The notes under the pieces were generated by a model, which worked only from the letters and a program-made list of their open reading frames with translations, did no database searches and was not told where the DNA came from. The position numbers were made by a program, and so were the translations under genes. From an uncultured virus (IMG/VR IMGVR_UViG_3300046507_000471) (lineage: Duplodnaviria; Heunggongvirae; Uroviricota; Caudoviricetes): a DNA stretch of 64,000 bases. Where the stretch lies: IMG/VR virus record IMGVR_UViG_3300046507_000471; one strand, given 5' to 3'. Below, piece by piece: positions 20,924 to 64,000 of this stretch; position 1 is the stretch's first letter, and each line of letters opens with the position of its first letter.

Positions 20924-20934
20924 TTCAAGAATCC

Positions 20935-42353: not shown

Positions 42354-42491
42354 GGTGTTGCTCCTTTACTGATTGGTTGGTTTTTGATACTGCGATTGGT
42401 TTTGCCAATAGGAGACTACACTCTTGTAGGTTGGCCATCTACTTGAGTATTCACTGCCGTGGGTTTAGCACGGCCCCCGGGAATACGGTTT

Positions 42492-43109: not shown

Positions 43110-43145
43110 TGTTCTTTACCTTTCTTTGGTAGGTCTTACTACGTG

Positions 43146-43385: not shown

Positions 43386-43425
43386 TTTGAAATCCGGTAA
43401 AAAGTTACAGGTTTACCCAATAACC

Positions 43426-45228
43426 TTATACCAAATTCGTATCTAATTCTCTAAGTTTATGAGCGATATCAACGAGGAGTTCTTCTCGAATGCTCATCTT
43501 ATCAATGGCTGCTTTTCTGATTTGATGTTCAACGGTTGTGTTTGCGAATATACGATAATACTCACATACGTGTTTTTGACCGATTCGGTGAATACGGTCT
43601 TGTTGTTGCAGATATACTTCTAAGCTAAAGTTCATACTGTAGAAGATTTCGGTGTGAACTTCGGGATTGATGTTAGGCATCATCTCATATTCATTCTCCG
43701 AGTCCTCCAATTTCTCAAGCGTAGTTCCAAGAACGGTAATGCCGTAGTTAACCGCCTTAGCTTGACAGACTAAATACTGGATTGCAGGATTCGCATTATA
43801 TTCACGAACCTTTTTGCCGATATTTGACTCTCCACCTTTGATAACTGAATACGTCTTATCCTCCGCTTTAAGCATCGTTTCGATAAGCTCAAGCTCGGCT
43901 GACATATTAAACCAGATAATCGCTTTCTTGGTTGGAATCTTCTCTACACAGATCTTTCTGAGAGCTTCAATCTTCGGTTGATTCTCGAAAAACAGAGTTT
44001 CACGCTTTGGTTTACGCTTGCGCTCCTTACCATCTTGGAGAAGATCATCCATGTCATTCGCAGCGTATGCGTCATTCTGCTTGAGATCAGTCTCGGCCTT
44101 TTCAGTCTTGTATAAAAATCCATTTGAAATCTGATACAGCTTACTCAGCATAACCAGTGGATTATCAATCTCGATAAAATTGCCTTTGAACTCAGCAATG
44201 TAGTTTCTTACAAGCGAGTCATAAACGTCTTTCTGTTCTTGAGAAGGCGTTACATAAACGTCATGAAATACCTTTTCCGGAATCTTGCCTTTAAGCCATT
44301 CTTCTTTAGTCATTACGATACAGCATGACTCAAGAATTGACCTTGCAATATTCATACCTTTAAATGCAACAATAGCGTTTACAGCGGAGTTATCTTCTTT
44401 CTTGATAAGCTTCTTTACGGTATGTCGATCCAAAAAGTTTCGATAGTTAAGTCCAACTAATGCTGGCTCCAAAAACCGCACTGGACAATACACATCCATA
44501 ATGGAGTTATTTATCAAAGTACCAGATCCGCCAGAACGATAGTTAATCACTCTGGACAACTCTGTCAAAGACTTAGTTCTCGTAGTCTTTGGATCCTTGA
44601 TTAGAAACTCATCCAAGTGGATATATTCATATCCAACTTCTTTTAGGTTCTCTTCAAACGCTACAGCCTTGTTGTAATTGATGATTGTAACTTGGTGCTT
44701 TTCGATCCCTTCTTTTTCCTTCGCCCAATCAGTGCTTTTAACAGTGTAATAGTTAAGGTCGGGACGGTGAAACTTGATTTCATCTTCCCATACGAATAGA
44801 AGAGGTTTAGGACATACGATTACAACCTTCTTAAATCCCATTAGAGCAATGTAGTCCAGAGTAACCTTAGATTTACCCATACCTGGATCTAAAAGAATAC
44901 CCCCGCTTCCAACTGTATATAAATAGCGCAAAGCAATGCGTTGGAAGTCCATAGGCTCTGTAAAGAACCTGAACGATTCTGGGATTTCTCTAAGCTTGGG
45001 AGTTGAAGTCAGAAATTCATGAACATCTTTATCGATTAAGAATTTCATCTTGGGGAATTCGCTTCTCATGCGCATGTACACATTACGAGCAGCACCCCAT
45101 TTTGCGGGAACATAGAAGTAAGGCCCTTCACGTAGAAAGGCCGGGAAGTCCATTAGCTTCTTATATTCTTTAATATCTTCATTTATGAATAGAACTCTTG
45201 TTTTATTCTGGTTAAACTTTATTAGCAT
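43426..45228 (-). CDS. SNF2-like SF2 helicase
   Basis: DPGMGKS, HLDE, SGTLINN, QQQDRIHRIGQ. Confidence 0.85.
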   Translation of the reverse strand: MLIKFNQNKTRVLFINEDIKEYKKLMDFPAFLREGPYFYVPAKWGAARNVYMRMRSEFPKMKFLIDKDVHEFLTSTPKLREIPESFRFFTEPMDFQRIALRYLYTVGSGGILLDPGMGKSKVTLDYIALMGFKKVVIVCPKPLLFVWEDEIKFHRPDLNYYTVKSTDWAKEKEGIEKHQVTIINYNKAVAFEENLKEVGYEYIHLDEFLIKDPKTTRTKSLTELSRVINYRSGGSGTLINNSIMDVYCPVRFLEPALVGLNYRNFLDRHTVKKLIKKEDNSAVNAIVAFKGMNIARSILESCCIVMTKEEWLKGKIPEKVFHDVYVTPSQEQKDVYDSLVRNYIAEFKGNFIEIDNPLVMLSKLYQISNGFLYKTEKAETDLKQNDAYAANDMDDLLQDGKERKRKPKRETLFFENQPKIEALRKICVEKIPTKKAIIWFNMSAELELIETMLKAEDKTYSVIKGGESNIGKKVREYNANPAIQYLVCQAKAVNYGITVLGTTLEKLEDSENEYEMMPNINPEVHTEIFYSMNFSLEVYLQQQDRIHRIGQKHVCEYYRIFANTTVEHQIRKAAIDKMSIREELLVDIAHKLRELDTNLV

Positions 45229-48989: not shown

Positions 48990-49364
48990 TCACTCCGCGT
49001 CGATATGGATATCGGCGTGGTCCGTACCGGTGCTACCGACTGCCGTGCGGTTCATGCGGCTTTGCACGAGCAGCGTGCCACCGACACCGAGAGCTGCACC
49101 CGCTGCCAGACCAGCTGCAGCCAGGACAGTGCGGTTCATGTGGCGGAAGAATGCTCCGACACGACCTTCGCCTTCCACGATTGCCGCAGCGTCTTCGTAG
49201 CGACCGGCAGCCTTCTTGGCTTGACGGGCTTCTTGATGGAGACGGCGGTTTTCGAGTTCCAGCTCTTCTGCACGTTCACGGGCCATACGAACTTCGTCGG
49301 CCACGCCTTCGTTTTCCGTCTTGTTGCTTTCCGGCTTGCCTGCTTCGTGTTTTTGCGTCGTCAT
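48990..49364 (-). CDS. coiled-coil plus TM-helix protein
   Basis: AAGGAG RBS; tandem promoter motifs upstream; GC-rich codons. Confidence 0.72.
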   Translation of the reverse strand: MTTQKHEAGKPESNKTENEGVADEVRMARERAEELELENRRLHQEARQAKKAAGRYEDAAAIVEGEGRVGAFFRHMNRTVLAAAGLAAGAALGVGGTLLVQSRMNRTAVGSTGTDHADIHIDAE

Positions 49365-49537
49365 GGTGATGCTCCTTGAAAGGATTTGAATGGGAGGAAC
49401 CTACCTATTATTACACAGCACTTATACCAAGCTGCGACCCTGAAAATTGAATACCGCTTCTGATGGCCAAAAACAGTATGTCTTTCCGGTACTTTACTTA
49501 TACCAAGATCGACCTCAAAAAATTGAATTTTTACCAA

Positions 49538-49566
49538 TTGACTTGAACCAGGGGTCAGTTTAAAAT
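49538..49566 (+). promoter_or_regulatory. sigma70-like promoter
   Basis: TTGACT(49538-49543)-N17-TAAAAT(49561-49566), 27 bp before ATG 49594. Confidence 0.7.
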
Positions 49567-49593
49567 ACGGTTATCAATTAATCTGGCCCCGAC

Positions 49594-51489
49594 ATGTCAA
49601 ATAACGGCTTTTACACACCATATCAACCTCCTCCTATTCCTGGAACTTCCGGTGGCCTACCGGGAGCAGGCAATTTCGCAACTGCCGGAAGTCCGTGGTT
49701 CTCAGTATCAAATCAGTTTCTACCAAGAAATCTACATGATGTAATCAGATGGGCTAAATACATCACCGTTCAATCACCGGTGACGACTGAAGTCATACGT
49801 AAATTTGCAACGTACCCTATTACAGAGTTCGTTGTACGTACAAAATCAGAAGCTACAAAACGAAAGTACGAAGAAGTATTCAAAAGCTTCAAGCTTAAAT
49901 CAGCGCTTCACAATATCGGATTCGAATACTACACCATCGGTAACGTATTTATCTCGATTTACTTTCCTATTCATAGAACCCTGCATTGCCCATCTTGCAG
50001 TCAAGGTTTCAATGCTAAGAACGCTGAATTCACAAAATTCAAAACATATAAATTCGTGGGTGATTGCCCTCATTGTGGAGCCAAGGGAGTAACGTTTACT
50101 CGTAGAGATGCTAAGTCAAACAATGTTGAAGACATGAATCTGATTCAATGGGATCCGATCAATATCAACGTTAACTTCAACCCTATTACTGGTGAATACG
50201 AGTACTACTACAAGATCCCTAACGACGTTAAACGCAAAATTAGAGAAGGTGATAAGCTTTTTGTAAATAGTGTACCTTGGGGTTTCGTAGAAGCTGTAGA
50301 GAATAATCAAGACTTTAAGTTCGATAGAAATAATCTGTTCCATCTGCAAAATCTCTCAGCAGGTCAGCAGATTAACGGCGTTGCAGTTCCACCGCTTATC
50401 TCTCTGTTCTATCTTGTTTTCTATCAAGCAACGCTAAGAAAGGCTAACGAGTCTGTAGCAACTGACTTTATGTCTCCGCTTCGTGTGATTTTCCCGCAAG
50501 CTCAGACAGCAAACAGCGATCCTGTTTCACAGATCAGTCTACGTAACTTCGTTGAGCGTATGCAGGCTAATTTGGTCAAGCATAAGCAAGATAATAATCA
50601 CGTTGTAGTAGCGCCTGTTCCTATTGGATATCAAGCAATTAGCGGTGAGGGTAAGAGTCTTCTAGTAGCTTCAGAGATTCAACAAGCTGAAGATTCGATT
50701 CTTCTGGCTCTTGGCGTTTCACGAGAATTGCTAGCAGGTACGACTAACTGGACAAGTTCAACTACTGGACTACGTCTTCTAGAAAATACTATGCTTTGCT
50801 ACACAGGGCAGATCGGTGACTTAATTTCATGGATTATGTCTCGTGTATCGAAGTACTTGAACCTTGAAACTTGTGAAGTAGACCTTGCGCCGTTCAAGCT
50901 TACTGATGATCTTAACTTACAGCAAATGCTTATCCAAGCTGTCCAAAGTAATAATGGATCACTGTCTAGTCTGTACGAATCTTTTGGTATGAACTTTTCA
51001 GAAGAACTGGACAAAATGAGGGAAGACGCTATTAGTCGTGCAGTTAGCGAAGTCAAGACGAAGCTAGAAGTAGATCAAAGTACGTACTTGGCCGCTCGTG
51101 AAACAGGAGACAGCTTCGACCGTAACAATGATTACAAGACGGCTCTGGCTAAGGCTCAACAAATCGCTGAACAGCTTTATACTGCTGATGATGGTACAAA
51201 ACGTGCTATACTTAACCGTCTAAAATTAGAAGATTATGCGATGTTCATGTTAGTCGCTAAGCTTCTAGAAGAGTACGCAGAAAACCAGCAGGCACAAATG
51301 GCTATGCAACAGGTTGGTCCGGATGGCAAACCGATCCCAGGACAGCCTGGTCAAGCTCCAGGTGCTCCAGGCGGAGAGGAAGATTCTGCTGACGAACCCA
51401 CTAACGGAGCAGGGCAACCAGAACACCAAAATGGCTCTGGCGAAGAGAAGCAAAATGATACTTCCAGCGGCCCTGCTGCGCAACAGTAA
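49594..51489 (+). CDS. putative portal protein with a CxxC...CxxC insertion
   Basis: Size, LFHL...GVAVPPL pattern, helical body and P/G/Q/E-rich tail are portal-like; not confirmed. Confidence 0.5.
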   Translation: MSNNGFYTPYQPPPIPGTSGGLPGAGNFATAGSPWFSVSNQFLPRNLHDVIRWAKYITVQSPVTTEVIRKFATYPITEFVVRTKSEATKRKYEEVFKSFKLKSALHNIGFEYYTIGNVFISIYFPIHRTLHCPSCSQGFNAKNAEFTKFKTYKFVGDCPHCGAKGVTFTRRDAKSNNVEDMNLIQWDPININVNFNPITGEYEYYYKIPNDVKRKIREGDKLFVNSVPWGFVEAVENNQDFKFDRNNLFHLQNLSAGQQINGVAVPPLISLFYLVFYQATLRKANESVATDFMSPLRVIFPQAQTANSDPVSQISLRNFVERMQANLVKHKQDNNHVVVAPVPIGYQAISGEGKSLLVASEIQQAEDSILLALGVSRELLAGTTNWTSSTTGLRLLENTMLCYTGQIGDLISWIMSRVSKYLNLETCEVDLAPFKLTDDLNLQQMLIQAVQSNNGSLSSLYESFGMNFSEELDKMREDAISRAVSEVKTKLEVDQSTYLAARETGDSFDRNNDYKTALAKAQQIAEQLYTADDGTKRAILNRLKLEDYAMFMLVAKLLEEYAENQQAQMAMQQVGPDGKPIPGQPGQAPGAPGGEEDSADEPTNGAGQPEHQNGSGEEKQNDTSSGPAAQQ

Positions 51490-51499
51490 AGGAAATTAA

Positions 51500-51796
51500 A
51501 TGGCTTCAAAAGATGGCGTTACAAATGGAATCATCACAGCTGAACCAATGGCGTTTCCGGGCTTCGGCCCGAAACCGGTCGATGAAAGTGATTTCAAGAA
51601 CTATTCAGTAAAATACGCACAGATCGACATTATGGATCCAGGCTCACGAGCTGAGCTTGAAATCATAGAAACCAAAGCAGTTAAAGGACAAGGTATTATT
51701 ATTCTGACTAAGGATAAATTTACCTTTATGGACAAATACTATATGGTAGTGAGCTACCTGCAATTAGAGACACGAGATGCCGACACCAGCCGATAA
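51500..51796 (+). CDS. hypothetical protein
   Basis: AAGGAA RBS; overlaps the start of the RNAP gene. Confidence 0.7.
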   Translation: MASKDGVTNGIITAEPMAFPGFGPKPVDESDFKNYSVKYAQIDIMDPGSRAELEIIETKAVKGQGIIILTKDKFTFMDKYYMVVSYLQLETRDADTSR

Positions 51797-54700
51797 TCTA
51801 CAACTTATCTTTTCATCGCCTAAGGAAATTCGCCAACGTGTGGATGCTTCCTTAATGCAAGGCATCGCTTCTCAATTCCCTATCGAGGGTAAGAATTATG
51901 TTCTTACTCTTGAAGATATTCGCACCGAACCAAAAGAGTTCACTCACCTTGATGAGAAAGATGCGATTCTTAAATCAAAGTCTCTTGCATATCCTATTCG
52001 TGGTCACATCAAACTGATCGACAAGGCTACTGGCAAAGTAATTGATGAGAATAAGAATTTCTCTTTGATGGATGCATTCCACATTACTCCAAAGCACACG
52101 ATGCTTTATAAGGGTAATAACTACTCAGTAGCAAATCAGCTCCAGCTTAACCCTGGAGTTTATACTCGTAGTAAAGAAACTGGCGAACTAGAGTCTCACT
52201 TCAACACTGGCTCAGGTCGAAGCTTCTCCATTACGCTTGATCCACAGACATTCCAGTTTTCAGTACATCCTGCAAGCTCGTCTTCAACTATTCCTCTTGG
52301 ACCGTTGGTCTCAAGAGTTTTTGGCATTGGTCCCAAAGAAGTAAGTCAGTATGTTCCTGCGCAGGTTTGGGAAGCCAACCTTGCTTCCTCAGCAGGGAAA
52401 GAGCAAAAGATCATCAATGATCTATACAGCAAGCTAGTGTCAACTGGTAAGCAAAAGCCAACAGCCAGTACAGAAGAAAAGATCATGCAACTCCGTGAAT
52501 CAATGGAAGCATCGTCTCTTTCTCCGCAAACAACTTTGGTTACGCTAGGAAAGTCACTTGGTTCAGTTAATTCTGAATCGATTCTACGTGCTATGAAGAA
52601 CCTTGTTCAAGTACACGCAGGTGACCGTGAAGAAGATAATCGAGATTCTCTGCAATTTAAACGTGTTCAGAATCTGCCCGACTTCATCCGTACTCGTTTC
52701 AGCAAGCACGAAATGCTCCCAAGCATCCGTCGTAAGCTTCTAGCAGGCCTTGACAAGACCAAGAATCCATCCCTGCGTGACGTAGTGGTCAGCAAGCCCT
52801 ATAACAAGGTTATGACGGGCTACATCATCGATTCTAACCTGGTATCTACTCCTTCGGAAACGAACCCGCTAGAGAGCCTGGAAAGCGTCGGAAAGGTCAC
52901 TGTACTAGGTGCCGGTGAAGGCGGTATTGCTTCAGACCGTGGCGTACCTATGTCAGCACGAGATATCGACCCATCTCACCTTGGCATTATCGATCCTAGC
53001 CGTACGCCGGAATCAGGTCACGCTGGTATTGACCAACGTTTCACTATTTCCGCTCGTCGTGATGATAGTGGAAATCTGTATTCACGAGTTCTTGATAAAC
53101 AAGGAAAGCAACATTACCTGTCAGTGCAGGAAATGATGACAAGCACAATCGGCTTTCCACATCAAGAAGGCAAGAAAACAGTACAAGCTCAGGTTCGGGG
53201 TGCGCTTAAAGAAGTTCCTGTAAACCAAGTAGATTACTGGCTTGCAGATACGACAGACATGTACACGATTACGACTAACCTCGTACCGTTCTTGAATAGT
53301 AATCACCCTGGCCGTCTAACGATGGCAGGTAAAGCTATTCCCCAGGCGCTTTCACTTGTTAATCGTGAGAAGCCTCTTGTACAGACTGTTACTGGTGGTG
53401 GAGTAAGTTTCACTAAGGCAATCGGCAACGTTATTAGCACGATTGCACCTGTAGCTGGAACAATCACAAACGTCACCAAGTCACAAATCCATATCAAAGA
53501 CGACGTAGATGGCCGTACTCACAAAGTAGATCTAGTTAAAAATCTACCGTTCAACATGAAGGGTTTCCTTGATGATGAAAAGCCTCTCGTTAAGGTTGGC
53601 GATAGAGTTGCAGATGGTCAGCCTATTTCTGATAACAACTACACAGTTGACGGAGAACTAGCGCTGGGTAAAAATCTTGAAGTTGCGTACATGCCGTATA
53701 AGGGCTACAACCACGAAGACGGTTTGGTAATTAGCCGTTCATGTGCTGATAGTCTAAGCAGCCATCACGCATATAAGGTTGACTATGCAGTACAGCCTAT
53801 CTCAACTATGAGCAAGACTTTGCTAGCTCGCCACTTCCCGGGCAGGTTCACTAAAGAACAGCTTGAGAAACTAGATGAACGTGGCTTTGCTAAGGTGGGT
53901 GCAACTATGAATCACGGCGATCCAGTGTATGCTGTGCTTGAAAAACGTGAGCCTACGTCAGAAGACCGAATGCTTGCACGTCTTCACAAATCGCTGGTAA
54001 ATCCTTACCGAGTAGTTAGCGAAGCTTGGACTCATGAAGAGAATGGTACTGTAGTAGATGCACATACTGAAGGCAAGAATATTCGTCTTCTAGTACGTTC
54101 AGTTAAGCCGCTTGAGATTGGCGATAAGTTAACAGGACTTCATGGTAATAAAGGTATTGTTTCACTGATTCTTTCTGATAACGAAATGCCGTTCAAGAAA
54201 GAGACTGGCGCTCCGGTTGATATTCTGCTTAACCCCGCTTCAGTAACTTCACGTATTAACTTGGGTCAGCTTATGGAAACTGCTGCTGGCAAGATTGCTA
54301 AGGTGACTGGGAAACCTTACTTTGTGCATAACTTTGCCAAGTCAAGCAACGTTTCTCAGCTTAAGAGTGAACTTGATAAACTAGGCGTAAGCGACACTGA
54401 TATGATGGTGGATCCTAAGACTGGTAAAGATCTAGGCAAGATTCTTACAGGCCCTCAGTACTTTCTGAAGCTGTACAAGACTACCGACCAAAACTGGTCA
54501 GCTCGTAACGTTGGAAGCTACGATAATGTACTTCAACCTACGAAGGGCGGTGAAGAAGGCTCTAAGTCAGTTGGGTACATGGAAATGCTTGGTCTTCTTG
54601 GCTCAAATGCTCGTAAGAACCTTAAGGAAATCTCGACGCTTAAGTCACAGGAAAACTCAGAGTACTGGGCTAAGTTTAGATCTGGTCAAGCTTTGCCAAA

Positions 54701-55181
54701 ACCTAAGATGACATTTTCAACTCAGAAGTTCTTTGATTATCTGAGTGGGTCTGGTATCAAGACAAGCATTAAAGACGGTAAGCTGACAATATCTCCTATG
54801 ACAGACCAAGACATTCTAGGTATGTCAAATGGCAAGATTCTTTCACCAGAACTTCTGAGTGCCAAGAATCTTGAACCTGAAAAGGGTGGTTTGTACGATC
54901 CAGGTACGACAGGTGGATTAAGAGGTAAGCAGTGGACACACTACGAACTAGCAGAATCCTTACCAAACCCAGTGTTTGAACGGCCTATTAAGAGTCTTCT
55001 AGGCCTGAAGTCAAGCGAGTTCGACGGTATTATCCAAGGCTCAATCGGTATCAAGAAGTTGGATGATGGTTCATTTGCTCTGCACAATACGTCGAACGGT
55101 CAGCACATTAAAACTATAAAAGTGAATAGTGCTAACATAAGTAGCGAAGCGGAAGGGCATAATGATCACGAATCCCAATAG
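51777..55181 (+). CDS. rpoB: RNA polymerase beta subunit fused to the N-terminal segment of beta'
   Basis: beta: RTPESGHAG, LVPFLNSN..GRLTM, GYNHEDG, GDKLTGLHGNKG, LNPASVTSRINLGQ, YFLKL, GYMEM; beta'-like tail from ~54780: PEKGGLYDP...HYELAESLPNP. Confidence 0.92.
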   Translation: MPTPADNLQLIFSSPKEIRQRVDASLMQGIASQFPIEGKNYVLTLEDIRTEPKEFTHLDEKDAILKSKSLAYPIRGHIKLIDKATGKVIDENKNFSLMDAFHITPKHTMLYKGNNYSVANQLQLNPGVYTRSKETGELESHFNTGSGRSFSITLDPQTFQFSVHPASSSSTIPLGPLVSRVFGIGPKEVSQYVPAQVWEANLASSAGKEQKIINDLYSKLVSTGKQKPTASTEEKIMQLRESMEASSLSPQTTLVTLGKSLGSVNSESILRAMKNLVQVHAGDREEDNRDSLQFKRVQNLPDFIRTRFSKHEMLPSIRRKLLAGLDKTKNPSLRDVVVSKPYNKVMTGYIIDSNLVSTPSETNPLESLESVGKVTVLGAGEGGIASDRGVPMSARDIDPSHLGIIDPSRTPESGHAGIDQRFTISARRDDSGNLYSRVLDKQGKQHYLSVQEMMTSTIGFPHQEGKKTVQAQVRGALKEVPVNQVDYWLADTTDMYTITTNLVPFLNSNHPGRLTMAGKAIPQALSLVNREKPLVQTVTGGGVSFTKAIGNVISTIAPVAGTITNVTKSQIHIKDDVDGRTHKVDLVKNLPFNMKGFLDDEKPLVKVGDRVADGQPISDNNYTVDGELALGKNLEVAYMPYKGYNHEDGLVISRSCADSLSSHHAYKVDYAVQPISTMSKTLLARHFPGRFTKEQLEKLDERGFAKVGATMNHGDPVYAVLEKREPTSEDRMLARLHKSLVNPYRVVSEAWTHEENGTVVDAHTEGKNIRLLVRSVKPLEIGDKLTGLHGNKGIVSLILSDNEMPFKKETGAPVDILLNPASVTSRINLGQLMETAAGKIAKVTGKPYFVHNFAKSSNVSQLKSELDKLGVSDTDMMVDPKTGKDLGKILTGPQYFLKLYKTTDQNWSARNVGSYDNVLQPTKGGEEGSKSVGYMEMLGLLGSNARKNLKEISTLKSQENSEYWAKFRSGQALPKPKMTFSTQKFFDYLSGSGIKTSIKDGKLTISPMTDQDILGMSNGKILSPELLSAKNLEPEKGGLYDPGTTGGLRGKQWTHYELAESLPNPVFERPIKSLLGLKSSEFDGIIQGSIGIKKLDDGSFALHNTSNGQHIKTIKVNSANISSEAEGHNDHESQ

Positions 55182-55533
55182 GTTTATACGGGGACTATCT
55201 GACCTTGCTGAAATCGTAGATGATGAATACGATATAGATCAGATAGTAACTACACCTCCTGCCACTCCGGTAGGGGTTGTAGCTCCACCGACATCAGCTG
55301 GAGATAGGTCTGAACCATCATCGTTTACCCTAGAGCAAGCAGAGTTTACTCTGTCTGCAGACGGTGCTCAAAACCTATCCTTACCTGATTCCCCGACGGC
55401 GGGAACAATGCTGTTTATAAATGGATTTCTCCAATCCAGAACGGCTTATGAAGTCATAAATAATGTATTGGTATTGCCAGAGTCTTTAGATCTGTATACC
55501 GATGACCTTATCATGCTGACTTATATAAAATAA
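55162..55533 (+). CDS. probable structural protein
   Basis: LFINGFLQ..AYEV motif resembles the C-terminal domain of 55606..56703. Confidence 0.6.
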   Translation: MITNPNRFIRGLSDLAEIVDDEYDIDQIVTTPPATPVGVVAPPTSAGDRSEPSSFTLEQAEFTLSADGAQNLSLPDSPTAGTMLFINGFLQSRTAYEVINNVLVLPESLDLYTDDLIMLTYIK

Positions 55534-55605
55534 GCAAAAGTTAAAATACATTTTGTAAGCTAAGGTCCAGCTACTATCGGGCCTCTTTTAAAAGGAGAGC
55601 CACAA

Positions 55606-56703
55606 ATGGCTCAAACACTAATTCGGGGCGGTTCTCAGATAATGGCTGGATCTATTCCAGCATCAGCGCTAGTCTCCGGTCTAAATCTTCCAACATCTCA
55701 ACTTCAAGACGGTGCTTCGTTTATTCGTTCAACCGGTACTGTCTCTATGGCTGCTTCCCTTAATATGGGTGGCTTCTCAATTACCAACGTTGGTACACCT
55801 ACAAACGGAACTGACGTAGCTAGCAAATCATATGTTGATGCTCTAGCTAATGGTCTAAGTTTCAAAAACGCAGTTAGAGCACTTGCAGCTTCAAATATTA
55901 CACTTAGCGGCACGCAGACTATCGACGGAGTTTCCCTCGTATCTGGTGACCGTGTTCTTGCAACTGCTCAAACAACAGGTTCGCAGAATGGTCTTTGGGT
56001 TGTTCAAAGCACTGCTTGGACTCGTCCTACTGACTGGGCGGCAGCAAGTGTTCAAAAAGAAGGGGCTTACGTTCTAGTTGAACCAGAAGGCACGACATAT
56101 AAGAACTCAAAGTGGTTCTGTACCACAGTTACAAACGTAACAGTCGATACTACGTCTAATACCTGGTCACAAGACACTTCAGGCGCATCTTACAGCAACG
56201 GTCAAGGTCTTAGCCTAACTGGTTCTTCATTTGCTGTTAAAAACGGTAATGGTATTGGCTTCGATGGTTCTAACAACGTTCAAGTAGTTGCTGCATCTGG
56301 TGGCCTACTAACTGTAGCTGCTGGCGGAGTCGGTATTTCTGCCTCAAGCACTTCTGCACAGCTTATCGTATCAAATGGTTCTAACCAGCCTACTTGGGTA
56401 AGCGCTTCAGGTGATGTAACTATTTCTACCGCTGGTGCAATGACCGTCAATAATAATGCAGGTACTGGATTCCTGAAATATGGCAATCAAGTAAATAACG
56501 AGACTCCGACTGGAACTATTAACGGTGTAAACACTTCGTTTGCTCTTGCAAATGCCCCTCAAGTTTTATCGCTTGAACTGTTCTTGAATGGTATGCTACT
56601 TGAACCTGGTGCAGGAAACGATTATACTATTAGCGGGACGGCTATCACTATGCTGTTCGCTCCGTTGACCGGAGACAAGCTAAGAGCATATTACTGGAAA
56701 TGA
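55606..56703 (+). CDS. virion fibre / decoration-type protein
   Basis: TNVGTPT..TDVASKSYVD; LSGTQTIDGV...GDRVL..Q....NGLW; ETPTGTINGVN...FLNGMLL...DYTISG. Confidence 0.75.
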   Translation: MAQTLIRGGSQIMAGSIPASALVSGLNLPTSQLQDGASFIRSTGTVSMAASLNMGGFSITNVGTPTNGTDVASKSYVDALANGLSFKNAVRALAASNITLSGTQTIDGVSLVSGDRVLATAQTTGSQNGLWVVQSTAWTRPTDWAAASVQKEGAYVLVEPEGTTYKNSKWFCTTVTNVTVDTTSNTWSQDTSGASYSNGQGLSLTGSSFAVKNGNGIGFDGSNNVQVVAASGGLLTVAAGGVGISASSTSAQLIVSNGSNQPTWVSASGDVTISTAGAMTVNNNAGTGFLKYGNQVNNETPTGTINGVNTSFALANAPQVLSLELFLNGMLLEPGAGNDYTISGTAITMLFAPLTGDKLRAYYWK

Positions 56704-56939
56704 CAGATAACACTCAAGTTGTACCAGAACAAAGCGCCTGGCTCGGAAAGATGCAAAACGAGCTGGGCGTTTTATATTCTAACGTATGGATGTTAGAAAT
56801 TCAGAAAGAACGTCTTACACAAAGAGTTCTACAGGATGCTGAGTTAATCAGCCTTCTCAAGGAAAGAATTCTAAAATTAGAAGAGTCTAATACAGAGCTG
56901 AAAGAGATGATTCAGCCTGAACGTAAAACGAGAAAATAA
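56700..56939 (+). CDS. small coiled-coil protein (possible fibre chaperone)
   Basis: Heptad-rich; coupled to both neighbours. Confidence 0.6.
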   Translation: MTDNTQVVPEQSAWLGKMQNELGVLYSNVWMLEIQKERLTQRVLQDAELISLLKERILKLEESNTELKEMIQPERKTRK

Positions 56940-57473
56940 ATGGCACGTACACAGCTTAATCTTGGGGCACAAGGCGCAGATGGAACAGTACTTAGAACTG
57001 ATTTAAACACTACTACGGCAGGAAGCGCGCTTATTACTAAGGTAATAGCTGGTACTGGTATTACTTTTAGTTGGACAGGCGCTGATGAAGGAACTGGGGA
57101 CGTAACTATAAATACAGCTGGAGGTGGTGGCAGCGTACCGTTCGATGTTATTTTGTTCGTGCAGGGAAGTTTTGCAAATACCGAAACACTAGCATCTATA
57201 AATATACGTCGAGCATTCTCTTTCCCATCTGGATTAACGGGAAGTAGAGTTGATTCTAAAACTGCTGCTACGGCATCAACAACTATCACTTTTACTAAAA
57301 ACGGTTCTTCGATTGGTACTGCTGTATTCGCAGCCAGTGGAACAGTAGCTACTTTAACTTTTGTTTCTGCAGTAAGTTTTGCAATAGGTGACGTATTTGA
57401 AATAGTAGGCCCTATATCGGCTGATGCTACTCTTGCAAACGTCAGATTTAACCTTCTAGGAACTCTATCATAA
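56940..57473 (+). CDS. probable structural protein
   Basis: KVIAGTGIT...GTGDVTIN fibre-like linker; T/A/S-rich. Confidence 0.65.
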   Translation: MARTQLNLGAQGADGTVLRTDLNTTTAGSALITKVIAGTGITFSWTGADEGTGDVTINTAGGGGSVPFDVILFVQGSFANTETLASINIRRAFSFPSGLTGSRVDSKTAATASTTITFTKNGSSIGTAVFAASGTVATLTFVSAVSFAIGDVFEIVGPISADATLANVRFNLLGTLS

Positions 57474-58102
57474 TGGGTACTTTAAGCGGATCGGTTACAG
57501 CTTGTACTGGAACTGAGGTATTCAATCTTACAACTCCTGCTCAAACAGACTGGATAGAATTTCCTCAATCTGCTACGGCGCCTAATCGTAAGAGCGGTGC
57601 AGGCTCAACAATAAGCTTACCGACTATTCTGGGTACAAGCGCTTCCTTTGCTGGCTTCAATTTCGGCTTAGGCTATACTTGGACTGGAGGAACCCCTCTA
57701 GCATCGGGAACTTCTAAACGTGAAGGTACTTTCGTATCTCCTGCAAGCGACTCTATACCGGGTCAAGGGTTTAGCATTTCATTTCCGGCAGACACTACTC
57801 CTAGAACAGCAGTTATATATTGGGGAGTTTCAAGTGGAGCTTCAAGATTAGTAGCTACTCTTTCTGACGGAAGTACTCCAGTGCTTACTCAAAACCAGGC
57901 ATTGACACAAAACACTGGATATTGGTTTTCCACCATTACTTACAGTGCAAATTCTCCAAAGCAAACTTTGAAATTAGATATAACTCTTACTCAGACTGAT
58001 TCAGGAGGAGGAGGTAATGTATGGATAGGTGCAGCAAAGTACTTGAATGCAGCGTACACAGGCCCTGCTAGAGCAAGAAGAACACTAATGATGAACGGCT
58101 AA
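57473..58102 (+). CDS. probable structural protein
   Basis: T/S/G-rich beta composition. Confidence 0.6.
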   Translation: MGTLSGSVTACTGTEVFNLTTPAQTDWIEFPQSATAPNRKSGAGSTISLPTILGTSASFAGFNFGLGYTWTGGTPLASGTSKREGTFVSPASDSIPGQGFSISFPADTTPRTAVIYWGVSSGASRLVATLSDGSTPVLTQNQALTQNTGYWFSTITYSANSPKQTLKLDITLTQTDSGGGGNVWIGAAKYLNAAYTGPARARRTLMMNG

Positions 58103-58120
58103 CATCTTAAAATTTGAATC

Positions 58121-59290
58121 ATGAGCAAACCAAATGAACCCGTAGATCCAGAAACTCTAGCAGTTTCAGGTGATGCATTCCATCAAATGCTATCAAGCAT
58201 CGATGTAGAATCGCAAATTAATGCGCTTAAGGCTGAGATCAAAGAAACTAAGTCTCCGTCTAAGAGAGACGCAATTGTTAAAAAAATCAAGTACTTAGCT
58301 GGGCTAAAAAAAGTGGGCTTGAACCCTGAGTCAGCTTATGTGCTTCACAATATTCCAGTAACACCTCCATTAGTTCGTCCTAGTATTCCTATGGGTGGTA
58401 ATCGTATTGAGTTCGCTGATGTGAATACTCTTTACCGTGACCATATGACCATCAACAATTCTCTAAAGGATATCAAGGATGACCTTACTCATGATCAATT
58501 GGTTAATGAACGCAAAGATGCTTATAATGGCGTCAAAGCTATTTTCGGTCTCGGTGATGCCGTATCTGGGAGCGCACGAGGAAAGGAACTAAAAGGTTAC
58601 ATCCAGCAAATCTCTGGAGATACTGGGCCTAAAGGCGGATTCTTCCACAACAAACTTCTTAAGAAGAAACAAGACTTCTCAGGTAGAGCAACTATTTATG
58701 CAGAGCCTAATCTTGGCTTCAACGAAGTTGCTGCACCAAAGGATATGCTGTGGACAATGTATGAGTTCCACATCATTCGTGACTTGGTTCGTAACGGCTA
58801 TGATTTGATTGCTGCCAGAAAAGCTGTAGAAAATAGGGATGTAGCTGCAACGAACAGCTTTAACAAGATGATTAAGCAGGTTCCTGTTATTCTTAACCGG
58901 GCTCCTACTCTAATGAGAACCAACATTACGGCTCACTTCCCTGTGCCTATTGAGGGCAAGACACTTGGTATCAATCCTCTGCATCTTCCTATGTATGCAG
59001 GTGACTTCGATGGCGATGCTTTAACGTTGCACGTACCGATGACCCCAGAAGCAGTTGAAGAAGCTAAACAAAAGCTTCTGCCACAACAACACATTTACGA
59101 CTATCGTAAAGGCCAAGGCGCATCAATGGTAGCACCTGGCCACGAAGCCGTTATTGGTTCTATGGCAATTACTGAACCTGATACAACTCAAGCTCCTCGT
59201 GAATTCGCAACAGAAGAAGATGCTCTCGAAGCTCTACGCAAGGGCGAAATCAACGAGAACACTCCGCTAAAAATCACTAGCCACGGCTAA
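58121..59290 (+). CDS. rpoC: RNA polymerase beta' subunit, middle fragment with the catalytic motif
   Basis: IPVTPPLVRP, DVNTLYR, KKQDFSGRATI, LNRAPTL, YAGDFDGDALTLHVP. Confidence 0.92.
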   Translation: MSKPNEPVDPETLAVSGDAFHQMLSSIDVESQINALKAEIKETKSPSKRDAIVKKIKYLAGLKKVGLNPESAYVLHNIPVTPPLVRPSIPMGGNRIEFADVNTLYRDHMTINNSLKDIKDDLTHDQLVNERKDAYNGVKAIFGLGDAVSGSARGKELKGYIQQISGDTGPKGGFFHNKLLKKKQDFSGRATIYAEPNLGFNEVAAPKDMLWTMYEFHIIRDLVRNGYDLIAARKAVENRDVAATNSFNKMIKQVPVILNRAPTLMRTNITAHFPVPIEGKTLGINPLHLPMYAGDFDGDALTLHVPMTPEAVEEAKQKLLPQQHIYDYRKGQGASMVAPGHEAVIGSMAITEPDTTQAPREFATEEDALEALRKGEINENTPLKITSHG

Positions 59291-59391
59291 TCAAAAAAGA
59301 GGAGAGACACCCGCAGGGTTGTCCGGTGCTCTCCTAAACCTCCCGACCACGCCTACCTGGGGGATAAGCGCAGTCAGTCCTTGCGCTGTAC

Positions 59392-60039
59392 TTATCCTTC
59401 GATCAGTGTCTTCATTTCCTTGAACAGTTTCATGAACTGCTCCGGAGTCAACACAATTCCCTTCTCATCGATGTCGATGAAAATCCCGGTGATGAGACGT
59501 TTCTCTTCTACCTTGGGAGTCTCAGTCGCGACCGGAGCCGGATCCGACTTGGTTGCGTCGAGAATGGTTTTCGCAATCTTTCCGAACTGAGGATGACCTG
59601 CGTCAACCGTTGCAATGCCTTGAACGATATGAAGCTCTGGCGTACGCTTTTCCGGTTTGATTTCATCGATTCTTGGGAGAGAAGGTGCGTTTTCTGTGAC
59701 GGGCAGGGGCTTGATCTTCTTCATGATCGCCTTCGGCTTGTACAGCTTATCGGTGACTCGCCAACGGAACTTCAAACGATCATCAGGGTCATGCATCGCA
59801 CCCTTAATGTTCGAGTATGCGATGTATCCACCCTTGAAAAGGTCGTTTATTGCTTGATGCAAATTGTTTACAGAGTTACCGAGAGCTTTCAAAACATTGC
59901 GAATCTCGGACTGCTTGAGACCCGGCTCTGCCTCGATGACCAAATAAACAGCATGGGAAAAGTTCTTGGGTTGAACGAGCCACCCTTGACCGTCATAGCT
60001 TGCTGTAGACTGTTTCGGGGCTGCAAAAAGCTGGTTCAT
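59392..60039 (-). CDS. possible winged-HTH DNA-binding protein
   Basis: PGLKQSEI...AINDLFKGGYI; promoter motif at 60100. Confidence 0.55.
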   Translation of the reverse strand: MNQLFAAPKQSTASYDGQGWLVQPKNFSHAVYLVIEAEPGLKQSEIRNVLKALGNSVNNLHQAINDLFKGGYIAYSNIKGAMHDPDDRLKFRWRVTDKLYKPKAIMKKIKPLPVTENAPSLPRIDEIKPEKRTPELHIVQGIATVDAGHPQFGKIAKTILDATKSDPAPVATETPKVEEKRLITGIFIDIDEKGIVLTPEQFMKLFKEMKTLIEG

Positions 60040-60131
60040 GGTACTGGTCCTTACGAAGTAGAATTGTTTTTAGTAGAGATGAATTTCCTCTACATTATTC
60101 TTATACCAATTCGAAGGACCAATTGTGGATT

Positions 60132-61496
60132 TTAGAGATTTACTCGGTCAAGGTCCCCATCAGAAAACCCATTGTAAACTGGGAATCTGATTTGACCACC
60201 TGGAACGCTAGGAGGATACGCTTTTACTTGAATTAGCTTCTCATTAAACATGGCTGGATTCTTCCAGGCTTGGATTCTAGTGTCTCTATCAAACCCAGTT
60301 CCAACCTTTCCTACCATACGTCCTGAGGCATCAGCCAAAATCAATGCACCCATACTATCTTTTGGGTTGCCCTTGATGTCGATTTCTTGTTGCTGGCCAA
60401 TAACCTTCAGATTATACGTTACGTAGTTCTTTACTTTGTATCGTACTGATTCTGTCTCAGGCTTAGCGTAGTCCGCAACTATTAAGCCTTCGCCTTTCTG
60501 GCTCTTGATAGTATCTAGGTATTTGTTGATCGCATCTACCCCGTACTCTAAGTGAGGTGCAAACATCAAATCAGAATTTCCGTAGTCCTTTTCGAACTTT
60601 TGAAGATACTCAACTTTATCTTTGTATGTTGCGAGATTCGGATTCTTAACGTCAATTAGCACAGCACGTACTGGGCCTTTCTCAGCTTGAGTTGCAATAG
60701 ATCTCGGAGGTAGAGAATTAAGAATACCTGAAACTGTAGGGTGCGACTCGGTTTCAGACTTTGCAAGTCCGGTGTGTACAAGCTCTACCGCAAACTGGTT
60801 ACCAACGTATTCTGGCATTGGTTTAGCCAGATGTGGAAGCTGTGCTGAACGCTCTGGGAATCCACCTTTTACACTTGGCCTACGTGAATGGTAAGTTAAA
60901 GAGCCATCAGGCTGTACGGTAAGCACAAAGTGGGCCCCGTCCCATTTCTTTGATGCAACTGGATGTTCGAGTGCTGTCCAATCGCCTTCTACGTATTTGT
61001 GTCTGACGTATGTGTCGATTGAAGCTTGCTTCTGAATTTGACTAAGGTACGGATTGATACCTTCTACAAACAACTGACTCCCCAAAGGACCAATACCTCT
61101 GAAGGACTGAATCTCAGCACGAATTTCTTCAGGAGTATGATTATCTATCAGATTATTAATAGTCCCGTACTTCTCTCTCAGGTGTTTGGCCTGAGCAAGC
61201 ATCGTAGTAGCTGTTGACTCATCGAAACGTCCGTAATGGCCTTGAACTAATGCATCACGTAGATTTTCCCAGCCTGCAGACTCAACAGCTTCCGGGGAAT
61301 AAAACCCCTTCGAAGCCATGTGTTTAGCAGCTAAAGATGCGACTGAACGTTGAATAGGCCTAGAGAAAAGAGTGACGGCTGTCATCCACTTGTACAGTTC
61401 TTTCTCATCACCTTTTGACAAGTCAAAGCCTAGACTTTCCGGACTTGCCGGTTCTTTAAGCTGAGCTGCCATTTTCTCTAGGTACTTGTTAGTCAT
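60132..61496 (-). CDS. HhH-GPD-like domain fused to an ATP-dependent DNA ligase
   Basis: N-terminal LYKW...GHYGRFDESTA...FRGIGP; ligase KKWDG, EGLIV, YKVK, GKVGTGF, IRFPVY. Confidence 0.85.
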   Translation of the reverse strand: MTNKYLEKMAAQLKEPASPESLGFDLSKGDEKELYKWMTAVTLFSRPIQRSVASLAAKHMASKGFYSPEAVESAGWENLRDALVQGHYGRFDESTATTMLAQAKHLREKYGTINNLIDNHTPEEIRAEIQSFRGIGPLGSQLFVEGINPYLSQIQKQASIDTYVRHKYVEGDWTALEHPVASKKWDGAHFVLTVQPDGSLTYHSRRPSVKGGFPERSAQLPHLAKPMPEYVGNQFAVELVHTGLAKSETESHPTVSGILNSLPPRSIATQAEKGPVRAVLIDVKNPNLATYKDKVEYLQKFEKDYGNSDLMFAPHLEYGVDAINKYLDTIKSQKGEGLIVADYAKPETESVRYKVKNYVTYNLKVIGQQQEIDIKGNPKDSMGALILADASGRMVGKVGTGFDRDTRIQAWKNPAMFNEKLIQVKAYPPSVPGGQIRFPVYNGFSDGDLDRVNL

Positions 61497-63423
61497 TTTT
61501 CATTAGTCCTTTTACTTCATCAAACAGTTCTTCTTTAGTATCTGAATTCTCTGACAAATACTTATCAATCGAATACGGAGTCTTGCCCCACATAGGCTTC
61601 GGATGTACGCTGTGGAAATGCTCGACTAGCACATTGCGCTCCGCTTCTGGCAGATGTTCGTGTGAACCAAATCGTACAGCACGCCCAACTACCTGGTTGA
61701 TTTTACTGGGGTTGAAGTGAGGTTCTAGCACTTGCACTCGCTTTGTCCCCTTGGAATCCAACCCCTCTGAACCTGAAGATGAAATCAGCAGAACCTTCTT
61801 CTTACCTGAGTTGTATTCTTTGACCAAGTGATCCTTCTCTGCTCTTGACAGTGACCCATCATAGATAGCATGGTCAATCTTGGCTTCTTTCAGTTTTCTA
61901 GAATAGTCTCGCAGGCCAGCATCGAGGTAGTTCGAATATACAAGTGCCTTGAAGTTCTTATCCTCTGCCATACCCTTCTGTAAGCTCTCTACGGCCTTCA
62001 GGATCTTAGGTGAGTACTCAGCCTTACCGTCTAACGTCAAGTGCCTGTGACCGTTAGAAACCTGTCTTACGCCAGCAGAGAATGAATTAAGACTTGCCAT
62101 TTCTTTCTTGTCCATAGGCATATTGTGCCTCAATTTCATCCGTAATAGAAATGGTAATTTCCCTTCAGCAAACTTGTAATACTTCTGCTGTTCCTTAGAC
62201 ATTTCCACTTCTACTATCTTTTCAGTCTTCTTCGGGAAGTGCTTTGCAGCTGCAGGGTCATCCTGACTGTCATAGAAACTTACGTATTGATTGAGAATTT
62301 CCTTAAGCTCTTTCCTACGGTCGAGTCTACGCACTGCTTCAGGCTTGGCTCCAAGAAGTCTATCTTTGAAACCTGGCTTAATGATTTCTTCTTTCGTGTA
62401 ACGATCTTCCATCTTCTTGGCTTCTTCCGGAAGAACATTATCATTTGCAGCAATGTTTACAAGAGCTGATATATCAGAGAGCTTATTGTAATTGCCAGTA
62501 GCAGTTGCAAGTAAACGACGATCAGCACCGCTGATAATGTCTCGGAGTTCTCTAGTACGTTTAGTGTTCGTGTTACGGAGCCTGTGAGCTTCGTCAGCAA
62601 CTGCGATGGAGTAATCATTTTTACGTAGTTTGTGTGCATCGTTAACAGCTTTTTCGTAGGACATTACATCCAGTCGATTTCTGTCCAAGTTAATCTTGTG
62701 CTTCTTAAGTTCTTTATCAACGTTCGTGACGAGACTGGCAGGAGCAATGACCAGCGCCCTCTTTTTAGGGTACTGTTCTTGATACTTCTGTACTGCCTTA
62801 AGAAACGTCTTTGTCTTGCCGCTGCCAAGGCTGTGATGAAGGACAACGCCTTTTTCTTTATCCAAATGGTCAAGAGCGTCAATTTGGTGAGGCTGTAGGT
62901 CACTTTTCTGTTCCTGTTTCTTCTTGGCAATCTTTTCTAGATATACGTTACCACCAGCATAATCGTCAAGCGCCCAAGCCTTCTTTTCGAGAGAAGTCTT
63001 ACGTGTGAGATATGGACTTTGACTCTTACCCATTCCGGTAATGTTTCGAAATATCCAAGAAGTAGGGGCATCTTTCGTAGGGGACTTCTTCAACAAAAAC
63101 TTCTCACCGTCTTTGGTGAAGATTACCAGCATAGTCTCTGTGCTGTGTGGTGCTACAATCGCCTTACGAACCCAATCTAGATACGTAGTTCCAGCGCCAT
63201 ATTGGCCTTTTGGAATTACAACCTTTTTACTCAATGCGTATGCACGGTCATGGACCGGCTGTTCAAATACGCCAATGATTTCACCCGGCTTTGGCATATC
63301 TTTAAGCGTTGCAAAAGAATAAGCTTTGTCTCCATGAACAAGTCTTAGATCGTAGTGAGTGCCCATTACGTCGGCTTCGTGCCGCTGACGGGTGAAGAGG
63401 AATTCGTCGTTTGGTTGTAACAT
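61489..63423 (-). CDS. LigD 3'-phosphoesterase domain fused to a SNF2-like helicase
   Basis: QRHEA...HYDLRL...PVH..Y...IPKGQYGAG; helicase GSGKT, DEAH, TAT, QVVGRAVRFGSH. Confidence 0.85.
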   Translation of the reverse strand: MLQPNDEFLFTRQRHEADVMGTHYDLRLVHGDKAYSFATLKDMPKPGEIIGVFEQPVHDRAYALSKKVVIPKGQYGAGTTYLDWVRKAIVAPHSTETMLVIFTKDGEKFLLKKSPTKDAPTSWIFRNITGMGKSQSPYLTRKTSLEKKAWALDDYAGGNVYLEKIAKKKQEQKSDLQPHQIDALDHLDKEKGVVLHHSLGSGKTKTFLKAVQKYQEQYPKKRALVIAPASLVTNVDKELKKHKINLDRNRLDVMSYEKAVNDAHKLRKNDYSIAVADEAHRLRNTNTKRTRELRDIISGADRRLLATATGNYNKLSDISALVNIAANDNVLPEEAKKMEDRYTKEEIIKPGFKDRLLGAKPEAVRRLDRRKELKEILNQYVSFYDSQDDPAAAKHFPKKTEKIVEVEMSKEQQKYYKFAEGKLPFLLRMKLRHNMPMDKKEMASLNSFSAGVRQVSNGHRHLTLDGKAEYSPKILKAVESLQKGMAEDKNFKALVYSNYLDAGLRDYSRKLKEAKIDHAIYDGSLSRAEKDHLVKEYNSGKKKVLLISSSGSEGLDSKGTKRVQVLEPHFNPSKINQVVGRAVRFGSHEHLPEAERNVLVEHFHSVHPKPMWGKTPYSIDKYLSENSDTKEELFDEVKGLMKND

Positions 63424-63495
63424 TCTTGTAGTGACGCCTTTGAAAAGCTAAAAAAAGCCTAGACACATTATAACATGTCTAAGCTATTTTAAAAC

Positions 63496-63918
63496 TTAAG
63501 CCGTAAGTCTCTGGTACGTCTCTTGGATTTTGCTTTTAATAGTTTCTTCGGAAGAACTCAGCAAGAAGAACTCGAAGTCTTGCTTTGCAGAAATCTCTGC
63601 TTCGAATGCAGGTTTGAACGTCTTGAACGGGATAGTATCAGAGTCTAGTCCTGTCACTTCTTGAATCACAGCATCATTGTACTTAGCGCCGATGAGAGAA
63701 TACTTTACACGATTCTCGCTCATTGTCGTGTATTCTCTATATGACCCAGGGTTCCAGCCTTCCCACAGTTTAAGTCTGTGTTTATTAGAAGTCACTGGTA
63801 GTGAAGTAGGAGTTGTGAGACTTTCCCAGTCAGCTGTTCTGAGAAACTCTACTGCTTGGCGGAACATGTCGCATCCAAAATAATCATCTGGACCCGTGTA
63901 CTGTTTAGCCTCGTTCAT
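63496..63918 (-). CDS. hypothetical protein
   Basis: Followed by a hairpin and T-run at ~63450-63485. Confidence 0.65.
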   Translation of the reverse strand: MNEAKQYTGPDDYFGCDMFRQAVEFLRTADWESLTTPTSLPVTSNKHRLKLWEGWNPGSYREYTTMSENRVKYSLIGAKYNDAVIQEVTGLDSDTIPFKTFKPAFEAEISAKQDFEFFLLSSSEETIKSKIQETYQRLTA

Positions 63919-64000
63919 GTGGAAATCAGAAAATGAAACGTATTTTCCTTTAAGGATCCACGTTACGATATCTCCGATATTTCTGAAGTTTGCGTAGGTG

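Follow-up and report, generated by a model that had tools for sequence, protein, structure and literature searches.

Natural fusions of rpoB and rpoC, joined head to tail in bacterial gene order and remaining whole, occur in Helicobacter and Wolbachia, and in T4-like phages genes are split by free-standing homing endonucleases, as in Aeromonas phage Aeh1, where nrdA is split by mobE and the halves still function together. For the RNA polymerases (RNAPs) of jumbo phages, the accessible text of a review describes different split sites and refers to the proposal of an origin of such splits from mobile introns (PMC7598289). The closest described enzyme is that of Salmonella phage Arash (gp206 and gp216, with sigma factor gp10; OQ632216); according to the accessible text of its description, virion proteomics found gp206 as the most-detected protein (3516 spectra), and gp216, gp10 and the helicase gp217 were also detected (PMC10585845). 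Here we analyzed a 64,000-nt stretch from an uncultured virus (IMG/VR record IMGVR_UViG_3300046507_000471; hereafter referred to as the window), which belongs to a phage of at least 151 kb that is related to Arash and was recovered from rhizosphere metagenomes. Its RNAP beta' coding sequence is interrupted by a 2.9 kb block of five other genes, and the best explanation, to which we assign a probability of about 0.82, is a three-gene RNAP that would have arisen by gene fusion, then fission, and then accretion of a gene cassette at the resulting junction. An earlier note on this DNA had proposed a multi-piece RNAP whose split point took up a structural-type cassette; this interpretation is supported by the pieces, their collinearity and the empty cuts of relatives.

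Anatomy of the divided polymerase

The first piece (P0001; 51777..55181, + strand; 1134 aa) comprises a complete beta subunit that is continued, in E. coli numbering, by beta' residues ~1-175, and it lacks the zinc ribbon. Residues 562-924 match the beta catalytic-core domain Rpb2_6 (PF00562, 4.4e-62), and the protein is 54% identical to residues 1-1142 of Arash gp206. We further focused on its tail (residues 1011-1127; 54807..55157), which had been read in the earlier note as beta'-like sequence missing a Cys-containing zinc-binding domain. A profile of 18 such tails aligned with Salmonella RpoC 1-200 (hhalign, probability 82.5%, E = 9.8e-6), pairing P0001 1011-1077 with beta' 28-126 and leaving a 32-residue gap in the tail opposite beta' 66-97, the home of Cys70/72/85/88. 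An 11-tail profile searched against the PDB returned beta' in all of its top 31 rows (E = 0.007-0.2) and in 55 of the 60 displayed, with the matches always falling at the extreme beta' N-terminus. Positions 6-46 of the Pfam profile Rpb1_1 also matched the tail (E = 0.0097, under the curated cut-off). The three tests agree in assigning the tail to the beta' N-terminus, as had been suspected. No Cys at all was present in this stretch in any of the 18 aligned relatives, and this absence, together with the 32-residue gap, indicates that the ribbon has been deleted family-wide.

The second piece (P0002; 58121..59290, + strand; 389 aa) corresponds to the middle of beta', from E. coli ~178 to ~550. 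It matches Rpb1_1 (1.5e-12; profile positions 158-266 of 312) and Rpb1_2 (6.1e-20), and is 53% identical to Arash gp206 residues 1144-1524. Its catalytic loop reads HLPMYAGDFDGD (YAGDFDGD rather than YNADFDGD, as first noticed from the sequence), with all three catalytic Asp retained. The Asn of bacterial NADFDGD is Ala in the window, in Arash and in Vibrio phage D69, and this Ala is nearly invariant in 18 relatives. We take the replaced Asn to occupy the position of E. coli beta' N458, which presumably contacts the ribose hydroxyls of the nucleoside triphosphate, and the change may bear on sugar selectivity.

A four-way alignment placed the cut precisely. Two Arash residues separate P0001 G1127 from P0002 L13, and the only unmatched ends are the 7-residue tail HNDHESQ of P0001 (with its stop codon, 55158..55181) and the 12-residue start MSKPNEPVDPET of P0002. 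G1127 and L13 flank Arash residues at E. coli beta' ~175 and ~178, and the coding sequence that resumes at 58121 is collinear with its cellular counterpart, close to where the latter would continue, as the earlier note had it. Significant alignments of the Arash segment with solved beta' chains begin right at this point (E. coli 177, Thermus 453 and cyanobacterial gamma ~183), and the 49 residues between beta' 126 and ~175 have a counterpart of 50 residues in P0001. Compared with the fused Arash and D69 genes, the cut loses and duplicates no residues. In contrast to the single Arash polypeptide, the chain is broken by a stop codon (55179-55181), 2939 nt of other genes and a new start at 58121; the last seven P0001 residues and the stop codon share bases with the first codons of the inserted gene ins1. 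We take the exact boundaries of the Thermus beta' insert beta'i2 to be 164-448. P0002 L13 aligns with approximately Thermus 454, immediately behind a run of 287 residues that Thermus has in excess of E. coli between the anchors. In the accessible text of its description, beta'i2 measures 283 residues (Opalka 2010, PMC2939025). Because the 287 extra residues fit this insert, the cut sits at a position in the beta' clamp where a large insertion is known to be tolerated.

The third piece, with the region of the bridge helix and trigger loop, had been expected to lie outside the window. No beta'C gene was found inside the 64,000 nt; it starts ~1.85 kb beyond the window end, on an IMG/VR contig that is 100% identical over the region (L006:17727-19553, equivalent to window positions 65847-67673), and encodes 608 aa with Rpb1 domain 5 (PF04998, 4.4e-15) and 51% identity to Arash gp216. 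The junction between the beta' middle and beta'C measures 6.5 kb in the window phage versus 46 nt in the relative L046. Another candidate for beta'C, L003:1015-1866 (G001, same genome, upstream of window position 30114), was rejected on its weak match of only 94 residues. This 283-aa ORF stands in a tail-like module and is 33% identical to Arash beta'C residues 219-312 (E = 8.8e-7, in that single record), the match including a C..C..C stretch that resembles the beta' region around the second zinc site. A sigma-70-family factor encoded by the phage (31658..32443, + strand; PHROG 351 sigma factor, 9.5e-25; Pfam Sigma70_r2 and r4 slightly over their cut-offs) is the probable partner of the polymerase.

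The inserted cassette and the junction in related phages

The cut is filled by five co-directional ORFs spanning 2.9 kb (55162-58102, + strand). The first, ins1 (55162..55533; 123 aa), has a C-terminal DUF4183 domain (Pfam, 2.8e-6; 27.4 bits versus a cut-off of 25.1), and in the Atlas it neighbours DUF4183 proteins that also contain collagen-like or T7-tail-fibre-N parts, which we treat as a lead only. ins2 (55606..56703; 365 aa) is a predicted capsid-decoration/fibre-type protein (PHROG 2647 'head decoration', 7e-35) matched by 318 phage records; its residues 81-218 match a 'Capsid decoration protein' (PDB 9nx3_A, E = 3.4e-15), and residues 27-93 resemble the N-terminal regions of tail fibres and tailspikes. 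ins4 (56940..57473; 177 aa) carries a tail-fibre-type C-terminal domain (PHROG 7049 'tail fiber protein', 2.9e-15) and in tblastn found tail-fibre genes, at their C-terminal ends, in 27 phage records, including phiCbK, Cp1R7A-A1 and pCB2051-A. ins3 (56700..56939; 79 aa) gave no significant family match in any search and is retained as a conserved ORF in 7/7 cassette-bearing contigs. No family, PDB or informative Atlas match was obtained for ins5 (57473..58102; 209 aa), the most variable cassette gene. PDB sequence searches with ins1, ins4 and ins5 returned nothing significant, and the AlphaFold2 models of ins5 (all-beta; predicted local distance difference test score, pLDDT, 47) and ins2 (pLDDT 37) were both too poor for searching. 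We infer that the cassette genes act at the virion surface.

The edges of the cassette, ins1 and ins5, turn over fastest. Between the window and L009, identity was 42-47% for ins1 and 57-58% for ins5, against 86% for the polymerase flanks, and in L010 an unrelated Gly-rich ORF of 261 aa replaces ins5. A mosaic was also visible at the DNA level (flanks 65-85% identity, ins1 ~50-57%, ins5 25-41% against L010). ins2 and ins4 were present in a 181,435-bp genome with direct terminal repeats. A search of four relatives at a greater distance (the Arash record, the D69 record and two IMG/VR genomes with completeness ratings of 92% and 100%) found them in none, and this absence indicates that the block originated outside the lineage. 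No direct repeats flank the cassette. An imperfect inverted repeat brackets it (16/19 nt, 55068-55086 with 58122-58140) but does not surpass 20 further pairs within these 3.7 kb.

We further compared the junction among relatives. Arash gp206 (1525 aa) and D69 0261 (1527 aa) are single ORFs spanning P0001 and P0002 (51-54% identity), and a profile search of IMG/VR yielded 47 loci, among which 16 were fused, 28 were split at the same column and three were undetermined. Relatives with a contiguous beta' at this site, for which the earlier note had proposed to look, were thus found. The cut column is identical in 9/9 split sequences compared (the window and eight loci) and in 18/18 aligned. Gap sizes in the 28 split loci ranged from -8 to 49 nt (six loci) through 203-388 nt (nine) and 686-2134 nt (five) to 2937-3480 nt (eight). 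Two further loci, L057 and L032, had no beta within 6.0 and 3.9 kb upstream, respectively. At the tight end, L041 has a TAA with an in-frame GTG directly after it, L048 and L068 share the overlap ATGTGA, and L046 overlaps by 20 nt. Since these cuts are empty, the cut can exist without insertion, and the cassette of the window clade would be an add-on; this is the sense in which the split point can be said to have absorbed a cassette. Among the 120 best-listed P0001 homologues in the protein collection, out of 514 in all, 119 are of split-type length (1106-1178 aa) and one is fused (P0122, 1501 aa). The arrangement is not confined to this phage and represents one state of a widespread, variable junction.

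The contents of the filled gaps were diverse. L042 carries a 342-aa HNH-endonuclease-like gene (L042:4888-5916; phrog_32617, 1e-42; phrog_2214, 2.5e-12), L047 an ins4-family fibre gene, L066 fragments of collagen-like fibre and decoration genes, and L057 a decoration gene (1e-59) together with a fibre-like gene of 1029 aa. The gaps of L016-L018 hold a minus-strand gene of 70-71 aa, and small plus-strand 'ORFs' considered there were rejected as non-coding. In L016 and L017 the minus-strand gene is a conserved 71-aa ORF with the motif SCRNHGxCxxCSxNR (L016:5804-6019 and L017:9733-9948), and a GC-rich hairpin stands directly after the beta stop codon, because of which the polymerase genes of these two loci probably form separate transcription units. 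In another two split relatives, the ORFs that come first in the gap (L045:4239-4820 and L064:4678-5340) share the N-terminus MNK[YF]LEK and an HPD tripeptide in a J-domain-like context (...RLHPDKHGGS and ...MRYHPDRAGGS). A distant relative (L071:2776-10230, 36% identity) has a single ORF of 2484 aa covering all of beta and beta', with an intein at aa ~1421-1833 (Intein_splicing 1.4e-9, LAGLIDADG_3 1.3e-8) between Rpb1 domains 2 and 5, approximately where Arash-type phages are cut into beta'N and beta'C. In the fused gene of Vibrio phage D181 (L021:3046-3994; the same in D148), ~950 bp with an annotated homing endonuclease lie near beta residue 515; the close relative D69 is without this insert.

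The divided gene stands in a tight co-directional block on the + strand (49594-59290), in which adjacent genes overlap by 1-20 nt or are spaced by 0-72 nt, and the ORF coordinates of the earlier note agree with the ORF list. The block opens with a portal protein gene (49594..51489, + strand; PHROG portal families, 5.7e-7 and 7.5e-6; 46% identity to the annotated Arash portal gp204), followed by a 98-aa ORF (51500..51796, + strand) that overlaps the beta start by 20 nt, has homologues at the same position in related loci and gave no Pfam/PHROG-type family match. The order portal, small ORF, beta is retained among relatives. Scans for sigma-70-type promoters (19 versus 17.0 in shuffles) and terminators (7 versus 8.7) were not above shuffles.

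Several observations were made elsewhere in the same genome. On the minus strand (13535-19545), a DNA polymerase is distributed over at least three ORFs (18292-19545, 16590-18299 and 13535-14545), another fragmented essential gene, with an HNH endonuclease (15941-16588) and an RNase H (15508-16002) between them. A SNF2-type helicase is whole in the window (61489-63423, - strand) and was matched in two pieces in several relatives (L009, L010, L014, L015, L017 and L018); the pieces lie downstream of the beta' middle, ~20 nt (L010) to ~2 kb (L018) apart, which suggests further inserts or splits. The window also encodes a Thg1-like tRNA-His guanylyltransferase (20093-21004, - strand; phrog_4717, 4.7e-70) and a free-standing HNH endonuclease (1886-2263, + strand). 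GC content is 0.49-0.51 at 40001-44000 versus ~0.43 elsewhere, and the ORFs of this region are without family matches except for a transglycosylase-like C-terminus (39811-40647).

Origin of the junction and competing explanations

We propose that rpoB and rpoC, as neighbouring genes, first merged into a single gene, which would then have been cut after the active-site half of beta' to give the Arash state. A second cut would have struck a surface loop of the beta' clamp, where the stretch that accommodates beta'i2 in Thermus comes to its end, and would have been attainable by point change, as relatives with an in-frame stop followed by a start codon suggest. The bacterial-type polymerase is encoded today by three genes, beta::beta'(1-~175), beta'(~178-~550) and beta'C, whose products presumably reassemble non-covalently into an active enzyme, in the manner of the divided large subunits known from cyanobacteria, archaea and jumbo phages. 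The new intergenic point, inside a late virion-module operon, would have become a landing site for foreign genes, and the window clade would have acquired there, horizontally, a translationally coupled cassette of five fibre/decoration-type genes. This order was chosen because beta::beta'(1-175) needs a fused precursor on the most parsimonious path, because bare stop/start junctions exist, and because the gap contents are heterogeneous; it follows from logic rather than from trees. By analogy with the Arash proteomics, the polymerase of the window is probably sigma-dependent, associated with the virion and produced late, along with the structural proteins, and structural-type genes would therefore fit its operon.

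We built a quick tree of the beta' middle with 40 rows, excluding L071, L064, L069, L054, L067 and L070 (matches too short), the near-duplicates L031, L035 and L044, and L062 (identical to L060). In this tree, 14 rows grouped as a fused clade (support 84) and 20 rows as a split clade (support 93). Several points weigh against the proposed history. Three split lineages (L045, L046 and L048/68) and a fused one (L065) stand at the unresolved base of the tree, the bacterial outgroup branch is very long, and neither the beta'-middle nor the beta quick tree fixes the root or the order of events. The fused P0122 is closest to split forms (68% to L069), so the junction was toggled more than once or re-fused, and the split-clade ancestor may already have had a cassette, with repeated losses, or the cassettes may have been gained separately. 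No clear Shine-Dalgarno was seen ahead of the ATG at 58121, because of which translation of the second piece may hinge on coupling to ins5. The stretch was present in 24 rhizosphere-metagenome runs, among which no RNA run was listed. As to the cassette, five fibre/decoration-like genes had been claimed; the five ORFs are there, but fibre or decoration homology is limited to 3/5 of them (ins1, ins2 and ins4), with no informative match for ins3 and ins5. Moreover, in the accessible text of their paper the Arash authors allow for carry-over of abundant enzymes into virion preparations (PMC10585845).

Beyond simple accretion, it is possible, and we put it forward tentatively, that the cut is a maintained cargo slot, in which the polymerase half-genes serve as homology arms for recombination and relatives exchange fibre/decoration cassettes, while the essential late operon guarantees expression and retention. 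The very different contents found at one column in 28 split loci would fit such a slot, as would the sharp drop in DNA identity at the cassette edges and the outright replacement of ins5 in L010. The same logic may extend to the second junction, between the beta' middle and beta'C.

A rather unlikely alternative to a cut that preceded its insert is that the cassette or a mobile carrier caused the cut, and that the empty or nearly empty junctions of relatives are later deletions. The N-terminal motif of ins1, NPNRFxxGLxD, is retained in the first gap ORF of L030/31, L040 and L054, which is only ~69 aa long, as a deletion remnant would be; a subclade with large cassettes (L032, L066, L057 and L047) branches as the sister group of all other members of the main split clade, and homologues of ins2 (35-46% identity) occur in the gaps of L057 and L066. 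However, split lineages outside the main clade (L046 and L048/L068) show overlaps of 4-20 nt and no insert, the L041 junction is what a simple nonsense change would give, and the window cassette is without flanking repeats and without an endonuclease. Fission before accretion remains our preferred order.

Removal of the 2.9 kb block from the RNA or the protein, as an intron or split intein, by which an Arash-like fused subunit of 1525 aa would still be made, is very improbable. Mobile elements do invade this gene family (the homing-endonuclease insert of D181/D148, the L071 intein and the L042 HNH endonuclease), but a search of 49000-64000 with E up to 1 gave no Rfam family and hence no intron, and intein or homing-endonuclease domains are absent from P0001, P0002 and ins1-5 (Pfam/PHROG). 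The non-homologous ends of 7 and 12 residues are also too short for split-intein halves, the block consists of five conserved, co-directional, coupled protein genes, and relatives have the same cut as a bare stop and start.

It is hardly credible that the insertion broke the polymerase gene and left decaying remnants in a phage that relies on host RNAP, a view to which the loss of the zinc ribbon, the replaced Asn in the catalytic loop and the start of the second piece without a visible Shine-Dalgarno would lend themselves. The ratio of nonsynonymous to synonymous substitution rates (dN/dS), computed against L007 and L009, was 0.06 and 0.04 for the first piece and 0.027 for the second, on par with the portal gene (0.05), and 0.07-0.23 for ins1-ins5 (ins1 0.18, ins2 0.07-0.09, ins3 0.15-0.23). 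Both the polymerase pieces and the cassette are under purifying selection. The three catalytic Asp are all in place, ribbon loss and the Asn-to-Ala change are family-wide and also found in the fused, abundantly made Arash enzyme, split-type length prevails among the homologues listed above, and neither frameshifts or stop codons in close relatives nor dN/dS near 1 were seen.

Finally, misassembly at 55.1 or 58.1 kb, of which the earlier note had warned, in the form of an assembler joining 2.9 kb of another phage into a contiguous fused gene, is refuted as far as contigs allow: the window is metagenomic and Logan unitigs break in the cassette at 55047-55188, 55413-55593 and 56668-56948, reflecting strain variation, but the layout is shared by 7 of the first 13 IMG/VR loci (seven contigs, six data sets, 86-100% identity, including the 181,435-bp genome), contigs from 3/4 other runs bridge each junction (the right with 2142, 2142 and 1809 nt; the left by a 142-nt unitig with only 31 letters on its shorter side), no deletion form, joint skipping the cassette or loose end was seen in the four runs examined, and the cassette genes co-diverge with their flanks under purifying selection.

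Together, these findings outline a natural series of moving RNAP subunit boundaries, from two genes to one, to two and to three, with all stages found in related phages and with cuts, in the window family, at places that no cell is known to use. They point to the site of Thermus beta'i2 in the beta' clamp as one that permits a chain break, and suggest that a sigma-dependent enzyme can do without the zinc ribbon and the catalytic-loop Asn. The family may offer a small, probably virion-associated polymerase for reconstruction from three or two genes. As a hotspot for fast-evolving fibre/decoration genes, the junction may also be of practical use for reading host-range modules in uncultured phages.

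Comparison with known systems

The window RNAP is of the same family as those of Arash and of Vibrio phages D69, D148 and D181 (51-54% identity) and lies in the same portal, small ORF, beta order. Common to both are the beta-beta' fusion, the loss of the ribbon, the Ala in the catalytic loop, a separate beta'C and a phage sigma factor. Whereas beta through the catalytic loop forms one protein of 1525-1527 aa in Arash-type phages, the window has two proteins with five foreign genes between them. In the accessible text of the Arash paper gp206 is called 'beta subunit', and no mention of a fusion was found there (PMC10585845).

Large subunits made of several polypeptides that form one enzyme are also found in cyanobacteria (gamma/beta'), archaea (A'/A'') and the virion and non-virion RNAPs (vRNAP/nvRNAP) of phiKZ and AR9 (PMC7598289, accessible text). 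The beta'N/beta'C cut of the present family lies near the cyanobacterial one, for the beta' part of Arash matched gamma best (E = 1e-47) and ended at gamma 552-558 of ~625. By contrast, the split sites described in the accessible text of that review include neither a cut at E. coli beta' ~176 nor a beta fused with part of beta' (PMC7598289). Jumbo-phage RNAPs split beta as well and have no recognisable sigma homologue, whereas the window phage has a whole beta and a sigma factor; identity of P0001 to AR9/PBS1 beta is limited to ~100 residues. The fusions of Helicobacter and Wolbachia show the head-to-tail joining that is seen in L071 (2484 aa) and envisaged for the ancestor, but in the window the fusion would have been re-cut at new places, shifting the subunit boundary ~175 residues into beta'. 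Thermus beta'i2 occupies the same permissive clamp region; it is a domain insertion within one chain, in contrast to the chain break with inserted genes in the window. As in Aeh1 nrdA, an essential enzyme gene is cut by inserted DNA, and L042 has an HNH endonuclease in the same gap. Unlike in Aeh1, the window gap holds five fibre/decoration-type genes instead of an endonuclease, and relatives with tight junctions are without any insert.

Literature searches, with supplements not covered, found no relevant description of a phage rpoB-rpoC fusion or of this split, and in a paper on RNAP-encoding Caudovirales the words 'fused' and 'fusion' appear for crAssphage only (PMC7481178). Split and fused large RNAP subunits are already known; what is new here is the cassette in the cut together with the hotspot series, that is, a fission point that serves as a variable gene-insertion site.

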